Positions 3,082 through 7,445 of a DNA stretch of 10,812 nucleotides are shown one piece after another. The notes beneath the pieces are model-generated. The model had not been told where the DNA came from and ran no database searches. It was given only the letters and a program-made list of their open reading frames with translations. The stretch lies in UHGV virus genome UHGV-0284389; one strand, 5' to 3'. The position numbers were made by a program, and so were the translations under genes. The stretch's first letter is position 1, and each line of letters begins with the position of its first letter. Source of the DNA: a virus.

Positions 3082-4410
<1,329 letters not shown>

Positions 4411-4485
4411 TGTAGTCGGAACCTGCAACCACTAATCCCCACCTCAATCTCAGTAACCCAAAAACAAACTATTTTCCGTTTAAAA

Positions 4486-4553
4486 ACAATGGAGTTTGTT
4501 TTTCACGCCCCTTTTTACAATATTTCTTGTTTACAACATACAATCTTTCTTGT
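4486..4553. promoter_or_regulatory. 434-type left operator (three ACAA-N6-TTGT sites: 4486-4499, 4517-4530, 4540-4553) with PL promoter
   Basis: Sites ACAATGGAGTTTGT, ACAATATTTCTTGT and ACAATCTTTCTTGT. Candidate PL -35 TTTACA (4530-4535) and -10 TAATTT (4553-4558), 17-bp spacer. The inferred start near 4565 is where the lambda-like leader ATCAGCAGGACGCACTGACC begins. Confidence 0.8.
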
Positions 4554-4597
4554 AATTTTAAGCCATCAGCAGGACGCACTGACCACCATGAAGGTGA

Positions 4598-4628
4598 CGC
4601 TCTTAAAAATTAAGCCCTGAAGAAGGGC
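4598..4628 (+). promoter_or_regulatory. nutL (boxA CGCTCTTA at 4598-4605, boxB GCCCTGAAGAAGGGC at 4614-4628)
   Basis: Sequence identical to lambda nutL boxA/boxB, within the PL leader upstream of N. Confidence 0.9.
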
Positions 4629-4785
4629 AGCATTCAAAGCAGAAGGCTTTGGTGTGTGTGATACGAAACGAAGCATTGGCCGGAAGTGCGAATCCGGATT
4701 AGCTGCCAATGTGCCATTGCGGGGTGTTTTCGTTCAGGACTACGACTCCCACACACAACCAAAGCTAACTGACAGGAGAATCCAG

Positions 4786-5118
4786 ATGGATGCACAAACA
4801 CGCCGCCGCGAACGTCGCGCAGAGAAACAGGCTCAATGGAAAGCAGCAAATCCCCTGTTGGTTGGGGTAAGCGCAAAACCAGTTAACCGCCCTATTCTCT
4901 CGCTGAATCGCAAACCGAAATCACGAGTAGAAAGCGCACTGAATCCGATAGACCTTACAGTGCTGGCTGAATACCACGAACAGATTGAAAGCAACCTGCA
5001 ACGTATTGAGCGCAAGAATCAGCGCACATGGTACAGCAAGCCACGTAGTGAAATGGGTGTGACCTGCTCAGGCCGCCAGAAGCAACGCGGAAAATCAATT
5101 CCAGCTTATTACGATTGA
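4786..5118 (+). CDS. N: antitermination protein N (lambda-like)
   Basis: 110 aa. MDAQTRRRERRAEKQAQWKAANPLLVGVSAKPVNRPILSLNRKPKSRVESALNPIDLTVLAEYH... is near-identical to lambda N, including the arginine-rich boxB-binding motif; the C-terminal ~25 aa diverge. RBS AGGAG. The track ORF 4654-5118 is an upstream in-frame extension. Confidence 0.93.
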   Translation: MDAQTRRRERRAEKQAQWKAANPLLVGVSAKPVNRPILSLNRKPKSRVESALNPIDLTVLAEYHEQIESNLQRIERKNQRTWYSKPRSEMGVTCSGRQKQRGKSIPAYYD

Positions 5119-5125
5119 GGTAGTC

Positions 5126-5263
5126 ATGCTCAAGAAAGTCAAACGCCGACTTTACAAAGAAGGTAGATATTCATGCCAATTGCCAAAATGCGACACAACA
5201 AAATGGAGTGTCGATGATTGGTGTAACTGGATAGATAGATACGGAACTTGGTGGGATAAATAA
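5126..5263 (+). CDS. small Cys-containing hypothetical protein (45 aa) immediately downstream of N
   Basis: ATG at 5126 with GAGG RBS 5 nt upstream. Translation MLKKVKRRLYKEGRYSCQLPKCDTTKWSVDDWCNWIDRYGTWWDK (3 Cys, Trp-rich). It occupies the lambda ral position but I see no sequence similarity. Not in the ORF track because it is under 60 aa. Confidence 0.4.
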   Translation: MLKKVKRRLYKEGRYSCQLPKCDTTKWSVDDWCNWIDRYGTWWDK

Positions 5264-5317
5264 CAGGTAACTTAAGCGTATTTACTTTCGCAGCAAACCA
5301 CTTATTTGAGGTGAGAT

Positions 5318-5788
5318 ATGACAAAATCATGGAGCGTACCTTTTCCTGAATCAGAAACTGAACATGATGGAATGCCTGTTTTCTGGAGATTCCAAGCGAC
5401 AGTTGAAGAAGGTGGAATCAAAATATTCGCACTTCAATATATAGCTTTTCATCAGACAGAGCATTATGCATGGTTGGTTCCTGCGCATTGGATTGTTAAT
5501 TTTAAACCAGCACCAAATCAGTGGTTACAGGAATGGAAACAAAGGAGAAATAGATATGCAATTAAGAAAGTAGCAAAAAATGCAGAAAGATCTTTTGCAT
5601 TCCCAACGAAGAAACTTGCCATTGAGAGTTTATTGCGCCGGAAGAAATACCATTTAATGAGAATCAAACAAGATTTGGCTGTTGTATCAACTCTTGTTGA
5701 TGGGATGAAGAATATTGATACATCAACACCAGATATTGAATATAACTTTGGACACAACCAAGAAACAGAAAATTGGGTATTTTATTAG
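5318..5788 (+). CDS. hypothetical protein (156 aa), low-GC moron in the PL operon
   Basis: Good RBS (GAGGTGA, ATG at 5318). By eye the GC content is well below the flanking genes. The C-terminal half is K/R-rich; no predicted TM segment. No homology recognised. Followed by its own intrinsic terminator at 5893-5918. Confidence 0.6.
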   Translation: MTKSWSVPFPESETEHDGMPVFWRFQATVEEGGIKIFALQYIAFHQTEHYAWLVPAHWIVNFKPAPNQWLQEWKQRRNRYAIKKVAKNAERSFAFPTKKLAIESLLRRKKYHLMRIKQDLAVVSTLVDGMKNIDTSTPDIEYNFGHNQETENWVFY

Positions 5789-5802
5789 TACAAATAAGCA
5801 CT

Positions 5803-5830
5803 GTGTATTCATTCCAACGAGTGAATACAC
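5803..5830. other. perfect 9-bp inverted repeat hairpin (GTGTATTCA...TGAATACAC)
   Basis: 5804-5812 pairs with 5822-5830, 9-nt loop, no U-run on the plus strand; intergenic after the moron. Confidence 0.4.
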
Positions 5831-5892
5831 GGAGCAATGTCGCTCGTAACTAAACAGGAGCCGACTTGTTCTGATTATTGAAAATCTTCTTT

Positions 5893-5918
5893 GCCCTCCG
5901 ATGTGAGGGCCTTTTTAT
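5893..5918 (+). terminator. rho-independent terminator
   Basis: GCCCTC-(CGATGT)-GAGGGC followed by CTTTTTAT. Confidence 0.7.
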
Positions 5919-5982
5919 ATGCATACCAATAACGCTTCACTTGAGGCGTTTTCGTTATGCAATCAAACAGAAGGAGCATCCT

Positions 5983-6153
5983 ATGCAACAGTTCGCTATT
6001 GCAGGGGCGGCATCGGTTCGCCCTTTCAACCCAATTTTATCGGTACAGCATTCACGAAAAAATATTTTAACCGGAGCAGACTTTAAACAACCAAGAATGA
6101 AAAGTTTGCTCGAAAAGCTTTGGGATATTTTGAAACAACAAGGCCGTCCATGA
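5983..6153 (+). CDS. cIII: CIII-like protein (FtsH protease inhibitor homologue)
   Basis: 56 aa from the ATG at 5983 (RBS AAGGAG, 6 nt spacing): MQQFAIAGAASVRPF...KSLLEKLWDILKQQGRP. Compare lambda CIII MQYAIAGWPVAG...RKLRDGWKRLIDILNQPGVP. The track ORF 5878-6153 starts inside the upstream terminator and is probably an artefactual extension. Confidence 0.6.
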   Translation: MQQFAIAGAASVRPFNPILSVQHSRKNILTGADFKQPRMKSLLEKLWDILKQQGRP

Positions 6154-6257
6154 GTTTTACAGATAACTGGTCAGACGAAGAATTCATTCGTCAGATGAAC
6201 AAAATGCTCAATCAGCACAAAGAACAGGAGAAAGATGATGATTCTGACTCTGAATGA
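6150..6257 (+). CDS. small acidic hypothetical protein (35 aa), overlapping the cIII stop (kil position)
   Basis: ATGA overlap with the cIII stop. Translation MSFTDNWSDEEFIRQMNKMLNQHKEQEKDDDSDSE. No homology recognised; may not be expressed. Confidence 0.3.
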   Translation: MSFTDNWSDEEFIRQMNKMLNQHKEQEKDDDSDSE

Positions 6258-6546
6258 TAAGCGTGAAATATCGCAAATAATCGCAAGTTTTACTGATGAA
6301 GATTACGAACGAATCAACAGTGAAGTTGATCGCCTCTGCAAACGTTGCGACCCAATAAGCGAAATGCTTCGCTCATATAAACCAGATGAACATACTAAGG
6401 ATGCTATCGACTGGCTGGAAGATGATGATTGTAACTATCAGGAAAAAGCCGCTGAATGGTTCTGGGATGCAATAACCGAAAGAGTTAAGGCTGAATATGC
6501 CTTCGCAATATTCAAACGCAGACACATTTTTGGAGAAGCTGCATGA
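6235..6546 (+). CDS. acidic hypothetical protein (103 aa) immediately upstream of recT (gam position)
   Basis: RBS AGGAG 6 nt upstream of the ATG; its stop overlaps the recT start (ATGA). MMILTLNDKREISQIIASFTDEDYERINSEVDRLCKRCDP... Not similar to lambda Gam by eye. Confidence 0.6.
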   Translation: MMILTLNDKREISQIIASFTDEDYERINSEVDRLCKRCDPISEMLRSYKPDEHTKDAIDWLEDDDCNYQEKAAEWFWDAITERVKAEYAFAIFKRRHIFGEAA

Positions 6547-7445
6547 GCAATATCGTTGAATTCGTTAAACAGCAGGAGCAGTTATTCTGCGGAGCATTGA
6601 CTGAACAGACGGTGACATGGGCTAAGGAAAGCCAGTTTGCAATTCAGTATTTCCAGAAAAACGATTACCTGGCTAAAACGGCACTGGCAAATCCAACCAG
6701 CGCACAGAACGCCATCATCAATGTTGCGGCGATCGGCATCACCTTAAACCCGGCCAGCAAACTGGCTTATCTGGTTCCTCGCGACGGCATGGTGTGCCTT
6801 GATATCAGTTACATGGGATTACTTCATCTTGCGCAATCGACAGGATCAATTAAGTGGGGACAATGCAAACTGGTGTACTCAAACGACACCTATGAATCAA
6901 ACGGCCTTGATTCAGCACCAACTCACAAATACAACGCATTTGGTGAGCGAGGCTCTATTGTTGGTGGTTATTGCACGGTTAAAACAGCAGATGGTGACTA
7001 CCTGACTGAAGAAATGAGTCTGGCAGAAATTAAAGCTGTGGAAGCAACGAGCAAGGCAAAGAATGGACCGTGGAAAACATTCTGGGAAGAGATGGCGCGT
7101 AAAACAATAGTTAAACGCGCCAGCAAATACTGGCCTAAAGCCCAGCGACTGGATAATGCCATTCACCTGCTTAACGAAGATGAAGGTATGCATCAGGAAC
7201 CAGTTATGCCACACAAATCAGAGGAAGATATCCGTGAAGATGAGCGGAAACGCCAGCAGGAAATAATGGATAAAGCACAATTTCTTTGCGATGAAATGGC
7301 TCAGGCAGAAAACATGGACGATTTGAAGCGATATTTTGCAGAAGCATATCGCCTGACATCTGGAATGAAATTGCAGCAGAACGTACAAGCCATTTACATA
7401 GAATGCAAAGCGAAACTGGAGGTTGCCAGTGAGCAAACTGTATGA
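6543..7445 (+). CDS. recT: RecT-family single-strand annealing protein (recombinase)
   Basis: 300 aa. The motif GPWKTFWEEMARKTIVKRASKYWP matches RecT GPWVTHWEEMAKKTAIRRLFKYLP. Sits at the bet position of the PL operon. Confidence 0.85.
   Translation: MSNIVEFVKQQEQLFCGALTEQTVTWAKESQFAIQYFQKNDYLAKTALANPTSAQNAIINVAAIGITLNPASKLAYLVPRDGMVCLDISYMGLLHLAQSTGSIKWGQCKLVYSNDTYESNGLDSAPTHKYNAFGERGSIVGGYCTVKTADGDYLTEEMSLAEIKAVEATSKAKNGPWKTFWEEMARKTIVKRASKYWPKAQRLDNAIHLLNEDEGMHQEPVMPHKSEEDIREDERKRQQEIMDKAQFLCDEMAQAENMDDLKRYFAEAYRLTSGMKLQQNVQAIYIECKAKLEVASEQTV

Follow-up and report, generated by a model that had tools for sequence, protein, structure and literature searches.

The early-left region of lambdoid phages has been described as an anti-defence hotspot. 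In lambda it contains orf28 and ral, and Ral, a protein of 66 aa, has an established function in the alleviation of type I restriction, by a mechanism specific to type IA enzymes. As described in a 2024 preprint, LPR1 or PreS is an Hfq-dependent small RNA (sRNA) of ∼88 nt, processed to ∼68 nt, that is encoded between ral and ea10 in lambda; its GC stem and U-tail form terminator tL2a of the early-left operon, and lambda PreS activates translation of dnaN, represses alaS, and was detected in the lytic cycle while being undetectable in lysogens (10.1101/2024.10.31.621285). Phage morons, after Juhala et al. 2000, are defined by their own promoter and terminator, which enable expression from a repressed prophage, as well as by deviant GC content and by insertion between genes that adjoin each other in related phages (PMC3594210). 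Here we analyze a 156-codon open reading frame (ORF) of the HK97 gp45 family in the virus genome UHGV-0284389, a stretch of 10,812 nt that is referred to throughout as the window. An initial annotation, made from the sequence alone, had described this ORF as a low-GC moron with its own terminator. Our comparisons indicate instead that it is an allele without a promoter of its own, which takes the place of orf28-ral in the accessory slot next to N in the pL operon, and that the hairpin and terminator behind it belong to the PreS module. The underlying observation was borne out, and the interpretation put on it was partly supported.

The exchanged gene and the PreS module

The ORF (5318-5788, plus strand, starting with ATG) is a real gene: a profile search found 88 matches, the nonsynonymous divergence (dN) from four homologues is 0.20-0.34 with synonymous sites saturated, and its predicted structure is confident (see below). 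Because dN is in this range while synonymous sites are saturated, the plus-strand frame is under purifying selection, and the overlapping minus-strand ORFs 5518-5757 and 5664-5837 were rejected as candidates on this ground. The statement that no homology could be recognized did not hold. The ORF matches PHROG 1636 with E 2.1e-111 (residues 1-156 to profile positions 1-156; 99% identity to P0001), and its annotated orthologues, HK97 Gp45 (AAF31125), 933W L0079 (AAD25424), phi24B vb_24B_11c and the H-19B protein, are 98-99% identical. All of these are labelled hypothetical, and there is no match to a lambdoid early protein of characterized function. They share with the window the protein, its position after N, and the hairpin and terminator that follow; the window differs from the HK97 Gp45 family in having an extra ORF with a DUF5484 domain before the gene and in that cIII follows directly, without ea10/ssb. 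The family gene occurs at 834 places in 598 of 5426 complete Escherichia coli genomes (11%), at 95-99% identity. Carriers among the Shiga toxin (Stx) phages that we examined include 933W, phi24B, H-19B and many Stx1a/Stx2a records, and all close relatives (55-99% identity) come from Enterobacterales. In the literature searched, we found no mention of the family under any of its names. Public records already contain both the gene and the terminator, the sRNA has been published, and the protein is a catalogued hypothetical in a known hotspot.

The composition of the gene was said to be visibly below that of its flanking genes, and when calculated it was indeed distinguishable from its neighbors: GC content is 0.361 and GC at third codon positions (GC3) 0.274, the lowest among the 22 genes of the window, and 0.8% of 471-bp windows are as low (window mean 0.453, standard deviation 0.037). 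The contrast is sharp with N to the left (0.509) and mild elsewhere (DUF5484 ORF 0.39 on the left; cIII 0.42, kil 0.38 and orf103 0.41 on the right), and as these neighbors are only mildly higher the ORF is best seen as the extreme of a wider AT-rich stretch. The strong ribosome-binding site (RBS) is likewise present, with a Shine-Dalgarno sequence GAGGTGA at 5308-5314, 3 nt before the ATG (its GAGG core ends 6 nt ahead of the start codon), but it is not the gene's own, as shown next.

We compared the leader among six gp45 loci with four different left neighbors (N, the DUF5484 ORF or an Nmad5-family gene to the left). Upstream homology among these loci begins ∼20 nt before the ATG, and the leader is invariant there. 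In strain J6 the order is N-DUF5484-orf28-ral-PreS, and homology to the window runs to 5320, i.e. through the start codon, and resumes at 5798, downstream identity being 95.9% over 5798-5920. The leader before orf28-ral in J6 is the same as that of the window and is slightly diverged in lambda and DEC5B; the lambda orf28 leader reads CCAC(T)TATTTRAGGTGA-N3-ATG, as does that of the target gene. Because the J6 and lambda homology extends right up to the ATG, the RBS is assigned to the shared backbone. On these alignments the swapped unit is the bare coding sequence plus 9 nt after its stop codon (to 5797), and comparison of J6 with the window shows that orf28-ral and gp45 are interchangeable alleles. 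What had appeared to be the signature of a moron (low GC, RBS, terminator) is therefore misleading, as only the coding sequence is exchanged and the rest is operon backbone.

The proposal that the gene lies in the variable ral/sieB neighborhood was confirmed. It occupies the N-cIII interval, and across prophages the slot holds orf28-ral, a gp45-family gene, a frameshifted remnant or nothing. In most relatives the alternative orf28-ral fills it, whereas in AGR6137 it is empty (sieB on the other strand, then PreS). Other cassettes come and go around the slot, namely Nmad5, a TolA-like gene, sie and ea10/DUF2528. The relation of gp45 to orf28-ral is thus one of allelic replacement rather than simple addition. 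In E. coli SCU-109 (locus L012, 1382-1746) a frameshifted pseudogene annotated as 'hypothetical protein' lies in the slot directly upstream of PreS, and this may be a decaying copy of a gp45-family gene.

The hairpin and the intrinsic terminator reported behind the gene were both found. The hairpin, first placed at 5803-5830, lies inside a somewhat larger one with a 14-bp stem (5801-5814 with 5819-5832), and none of 200 shuffles folded as well. The terminator has the stem GCCCTC/GAGGGC at 5893-5910, followed by CTTTTTAT, with a free energy (dG) of -10.7 kcal/mol from the terminator scan and folding. Neither element, however, belongs to the gene. Positions 5798-5918 are ∼96-97% identical to the ral-ea10 spacer of lambda by our own count of alignment columns, with a handful of mismatches and one gap in the T-run. 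The hairpin is identical in lambda, 933W and HK97 and abuts the inferred 5' end of PreS, which we placed by counting back ∼88 nt, the published length, from the U-tail; in the HK97 record the equivalent of 5893-5918 is labelled 'putative terminator'. We counted 3192 places with the stretch 5796-5920, spread over 2234 genomes, which is about four times the number for the gp45 ORF, and 986 places with ral in 875 genomes; in ∼74% of its places, lambda included, PreS stands without a gp45 gene. By this comparison the hairpin and terminator are part of a PreS sRNA module that lambda also has, and the claim that the gene brought its own terminator did not survive. Annotators and terminator scanners should accordingly not assign them to the gp45 gene.

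The position of a 39-nt lambda-type spacer points the same way. In NCTC11121 it lies between the gp45 stop codon and the hairpin, and in A21005 it precedes the gp45 leader; because it parts gene and hairpin in the one and stands ahead of the leader in the other, the hairpin belongs with PreS and not with gp45. The spacer carries a terminator-like motif (GGCCGCATAGYCGRCCTTTATTTTT...AACACTGCACTG) in NCTC11121 (L003, 2592-2640), A21005 (L005, ∼2690-2745) and lambda (34041-34086), and the hexamer GCACTG is found at both joints. The spacer has the look of a short linker sequence that serves as a point of module exchange.

The window copy of PreS shares with lambda PreS the GC stem and U-tail and the seed for the dnaN leader, and differs in a variant terminator loop, in an A for G at 5881, and in sitting after gp45 rather than ral. 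Its single-stranded seed is predicted to pair with the E. coli K-12 dnaN leader at -48..-16 with a dG of -29.2 kcal/mol, compared with a shuffle mean of -15.7 (standard deviation 2.4, z -5.5), a value reached by none of 1000 shuffles. Position 5881 lies in the seed and is G in lambda, HK97 and 933W and also in five E. coli loci; with A at this position, pairing to the dnaN leader would be A-U instead of G.U, at a dG of -29.2 vs -28.7 kcal/mol. No PreS module 100% identical to that of the window was found among the complete E. coli genomes, the best being 98.4%. Rfam 15 gave no match in 4000-7000, PreS not being included in that release. The hairpin could be a processing site, a 3' stabilizer of the upstream mRNA or a protein-binding palindrome; the passages on PreS in the preprint give no role for a hairpin upstream of it (10.1101/2024.10.31.621285). 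Two other readings of the 3' region were rejected: the prophage anti-sRNAs AgvB/AsxR (Tree et al. 2014), which sit at the PR' moron site, and a 14-codon ORF (ATG at 5836), which the A/G polymorphism at 5881 either shortens or lengthens and whose frame is not conserved.

In every E. coli or E. coli-phage locus with gp45 that we examined, the hairpin and PreS lie directly 3' of the gene. This arrangement, together with the basic character of the protein, would fit a protein that works together with PreS, for example by helping to process or chaperone the neighboring sRNA or its hairpin. We consider such a partnership extremely unlikely, since about three quarters of the PreS places have no gp45 gene, among them that of lambda, in which PreS was shown to be functional, and since PreS is missing beside the homologues of Cronobacter, Pectobacterium, Brenneria and remote phages, that of Cronobacter being followed by a different terminator.

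Probable expression from pL and the moron interpretation

We scanned the plus strand for signals that could drive or stop transcription of the gene. A sigma-70 consensus scan found no sigma-70-like promoter site in 4283-6155, and a terminator scan found no intrinsic terminator between pL and 5893. The pL promoter, within or beside the three oL operators at 4486-4553, is the most likely promoter for the target gene. As we picture it, gp45 would be transcribed from pL only, would be silent in a lysogen repressed by the 434-type repressor, and its product would appear within minutes of the onset of infection or induction. A part of this expression may even come before N action, as transcription from pL meets no intrinsic terminator ahead of tL2a in this phage. 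Since the flanks of gp45 and orf28-ral are identical, the two would be regulated identically, and the slot, the leader and RBS, the PreS-tL2a module and (by extension from ral) early expression driven by pL would be common to both.

A genuine moron would be an autonomous unit, expressed from the repressed prophage and of benefit to the lysogen, e.g. through superinfection exclusion like that of HK97 gp15. The gene resembles described morons (Juhala et al. 2000; HK97 gene 15) in its deviant GC content, its horizontal mobility and in being extra DNA relative to some relatives; the GC content is clearly below that of N, a terminator follows the gene, and exclusion genes, i.e. sieB and a 'superinfection exclusion protein', are found in the neighborhood. 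Deviant GC and horizontal exchange are therefore the parts of the moron proposal that stand. However, gp45 lacks a promoter, terminator and RBS of its own and is expected to be silent in the lysogen. The conserved unit leaves no room for a promoter, as in GDSC2239 the N stop codon is 8 nt from the gp45 ATG, and the leader is the one also used by orf28-ral; the tL2a/PreS terminator follows ral in lambda and mostly occurs without the gene; PreS, which directly follows on the gene's own transcript, was undetectable in lysogens of lambda; the protein has neither a transmembrane helix nor a signal peptide, unlike typical exclusion proteins; and the family has members beyond the lambdoid phages too, some of them in phages that we take to be virulent. 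Taken together, these points make an autonomous moron very unlikely.

We hold the anatomy and the expression logic set out above, i.e. a promoterless allele on the pL transcript ahead of PreS, with high confidence. Several points nevertheless weigh against it. The absence of a promoter is deduced from a simple sigma-70 consensus scan and from homology boundaries, and a weak or non-canonical promoter may lie inside N or the DUF5484 ORF. Rho-dependent termination is possible between N and the gene, which leaves immediate-early expression uncertain. Lytic-only expression was measured on lambda PreS rather than on the gp45 gene, and the 5' coordinate of PreS in the window comes from the published length rather than from a published sequence.

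The Gp45 protein and its possible role

Most of the 88 profile matches (exhaustive search, E<=0.001) are single-domain relatives of 130-170 aa, with a few fragments or spurious repeat proteins among them. A first AlphaFold2 run on a shallow alignment gave a poor model (predicted local distance difference test, pLDDT, 58), which was discarded; on a deeper alignment the pLDDT was 94.6 and the predicted template modelling score (pTM) 0.82. In this model, strands 19-30, 33-46 and 50-55 are followed by two short helices, a further strand (83-86), a helix (98-130) and a C-terminal tail, which is modelled at high pLDDT and has a conserved FGHNxETExWxF motif. The protein is thus predicted to be a soluble single-domain alpha/beta protein in which a three-stranded sheet is combined with a 33-residue helix and a packed C-terminal tail. 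No transmembrane helix had been expected and none was found, the maximal 19-residue Kyte-Doolittle mean being 0.64. The K/R-rich character is real; the middle of the protein is very basic, residues 61-130 having 17 K/R (isoelectric point 10.9).

Searches with the sequence and the model returned no characterized relative, and the family is a phage-only one. There was no match in Pfam or NCBIfam and no structural neighbor of the AlphaFold2 model in the PDB, and no known DNA- or RNA-binding fold was detected; PADLOC-DB 2.0 gave no significant match, its only hit (Cas1_II, E 0.018, 12 bits over 45 residues) being noise. Matches in BFVD were all to uncharacterized phage proteins, from Erwinia phiEa2809, Achromobacter phiAxp-3, Delftia RG-2014, rhizobiophages, Cellulophaga/Tenacibaculum phages and others. 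None of the relatives has a source name or a Pfam family, and no domain fusion was informative, the longer profile matches being two spurious repeat proteins and one protein with a Cys-rich extension at its N terminus. Throughout the family G33, E46, T47, K87 (98% K/R) and A101 are conserved, as are basic positions at 24, 75, 76, 83, 84, 87, 92, 98, 108 and 109, and the net charge of region 76-130 has a median of +8 (range 4-12, 64 members). No catalytic-looking constellation is conserved. We infer that Gp45 acts by binding rather than catalysis; most likely it would bind, stoichiometrically and soon after infection, either a nucleic acid or an acidic protein of the host.

The genomic context of the relatives was compared, and wherever the phage context was readable the gene had early genes around it. 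In temperate elements the gene is always in the early-left, int-proximal operon: the order in Cronobacter is cI-N-X-cIII, in Pectobacterium and Brenneria the gene lies directly ahead of xis-int, and in Marinobacterium and Pseudomaricurvus it lies amid genes for YqaJ, SSB, RdgC, a cytosine methylase and int. In about half of 11 viral contigs it is within the first three genes after a divergent junction. Neighbors on these contigs include DUF6291 proteins and an MT-A70 methylase, and methylase genes adjoin three remote relatives, but no neighbor or partner gene recurs over the 11 viral loci. In two unrelated phages a short gene for a DnaN-like protein (beta clamp) is found only a few genes away from the gp45-family member; these are Salmonella phage NX263 (annotated; L017, 4865-5401) and an IMG/VR contig (weak PF02768 match; L022, 4068-4619). 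That PreS up-regulates host dnaN beside gp45 in E. coli is probably a coincidence with respect to these neighbors.

The family-wide basic face and its charge would suit a phage-directed nucleic-acid-binding factor, i.e. a replication or recombination accessory or a regulator of early transcripts and not an anti-host factor, as would the presence of the gene in a recombination-gene operon with YqaJ, SSB, RdgC, RecT and Erf and the short DnaN-like genes nearby in the two unrelated phages. We nevertheless judge this role rather unlikely, given that no neighbor is conserved over the viral loci, that phages can do without the gene, which lambda and many relatives do not carry, and that the model resembles no known nucleic-acid-binding fold.

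Alternatively, Gp45 could be a specific functional analogue of Ral that shields the unmodified phage genome from type I (or other) restriction when it enters the cell. It is the exact positional allele of orf28-ral, with identical flanks, each prophage locus examined has one or the other but never both, and remote relatives often lie beside phage DNA methylases and among the first genes after a divergent junction. However, the two proteins have no sequence similarity (BLASTP E = 23), Gp45 is 2.4 times larger than Ral, no match in PADLOC or elsewhere links it to antirestriction, and nothing ties it to Hsd subunits. Mutual exclusivity is moreover partly a consequence of one shared slot, which can also be empty. 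A direct equivalent of Ral is therefore unlikely, and PGAP names the two genes differently as well ('antirestriction Ral family protein' for ral, 'hypothetical' for gp45).

On balance we lean towards the broader explanation that the gene is a bare coding-sequence allele of orf28-ral encoding an early binding protein, possibly with a part in counter-defence or host takeover; this blends anatomy and function. Counter-defence or host takeover is the likeliest class because the gene is allelic to ral, lies upstream of the first intrinsic terminator of the pL operon, has methylases beside three of its relatives and sits in a hotspot. Taken by itself, a counter-defence role of whatever kind is possible but doubtful. 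The case for it has three supports, the Ral slot, early timing and the family distribution, and basic helices would equally suit regulators, recombination accessories and RNA-binding proteins. A bolder version, which we put forward as speculation that is more probably wrong than right, is that Gp45/L0079 is an unrecognized counter-defence family with a new fold that replaces Ral in about a quarter of PreS-bearing E. coli lambdoid prophages, the Stx phages that we examined among them, and that its distant relatives occupy the early operons of unrelated, non-lambdoid phages in the same capacity. If a counter-defence role were true, it would bear on the spread of Stx phages among E. coli strains. 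In any case the protein is a well-defined target for study, being an orphan with a confident predicted fold and no PDB relative that is allelic to an anti-restriction gene.

The surrounding phage region

The window comprises the early and immunity region of a lambdoid prophage whose immunity is of the 434 type, and its features are collected in Table 1. The nutL site is annotated at the equivalent position in lambda, 933W and phi24B. Beyond cIII lie kil, RecT and other genes, with xis last.

Table 1. Features of the window around the gp45-family gene
Feature	Position	Strand	Basis and remarks
Primase/helicase, O-like replication gene, cII, cro		-	minus-strand genes
oR	3311-3369		three 434-type operators
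cI, 434-type	3401-4033	+	
434 'repressor protection protein' ORF	4030-4410 (ORF listed as 3958-4410)	+	phrog_2651
oL	4486-4553		three 434-type operators (ACAA-N6-TTGT); exact matches at 4486, 4517, 4540; mirror the three of oR
nutL, lambda-type	4598-4628	+	boxA CGCTCTTA, boxB GCCCTGAAGAAGGGC; read from sequence
N antiterminator gene, lambda-type	4786-5118	+	PF11438 N36 E 1.6e-26; phrog_271
45-aa DUF5484 ORF	5126-5263	+	PF17583 E 2.6e-12; phrog_1871
Shared leader with RBS (CCACTTATTTGAGGTGAGAT)	5290-5317	+	backbone, outside the swapped unit
Target 156-aa coding sequence (HK97 gp45 family)	5318-5788	+	phrog_1636, full length
Hairpin, 14-bp, directly 5' of PreS	5801-5832	+	dG -21.7 kcal/mol, z -6.6; part of conserved PreS module
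PreS (LPR1) sRNA gene	5829-5916	+	homology to lambda; 5' end inferred
tL2a, intrinsic terminator of both the early-left operon and PreS (Hfq-binding 3' end)	5893-5918	+	scan, fold
Second terminator-like hairpin, cIII leader	5931-5957	+	8-bp stem then TTTTCGTT; ∼25 nt upstream of cIII RBS
cIII, right-hand neighbor, next backbone gene	5983-6153	+	phrog_550 CIII E 4e-22; cIII annotated in HK97

The DUF5484 ORF is a separate, independent mini-cassette between N and the target gene. It was found in 145 of the 5426 complete E. coli genomes, was left unannotated by PGAP in every hit sampled, and is absent from HK97, where gp45 comes straight after N. The second hairpin (5931-5957) is common to HK97 and CS18F, has a diverged form in Cronobacter and is absent from lambda. 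A tL2b-like terminator is one possibility for it and a structure of the cIII leader another.

Two observations concern the genes next to the repressor. The ORF at 4030-4410 lies directly 3' of the 434-type cI on the same strand, i.e. in the rex slot, has a hydrophobic segment at its N terminus, and is 95% identical to the 'repressor protection protein' gene of phage 434 records and to Sf6 gene 38. Judged by position, it is the best candidate here for co-transcription with cI in the lysogen. In E. coli CS18F (L002, 1-1513), the closest full-length relative of the N-cIII segment, rexA is broken by an IS1A insertion.

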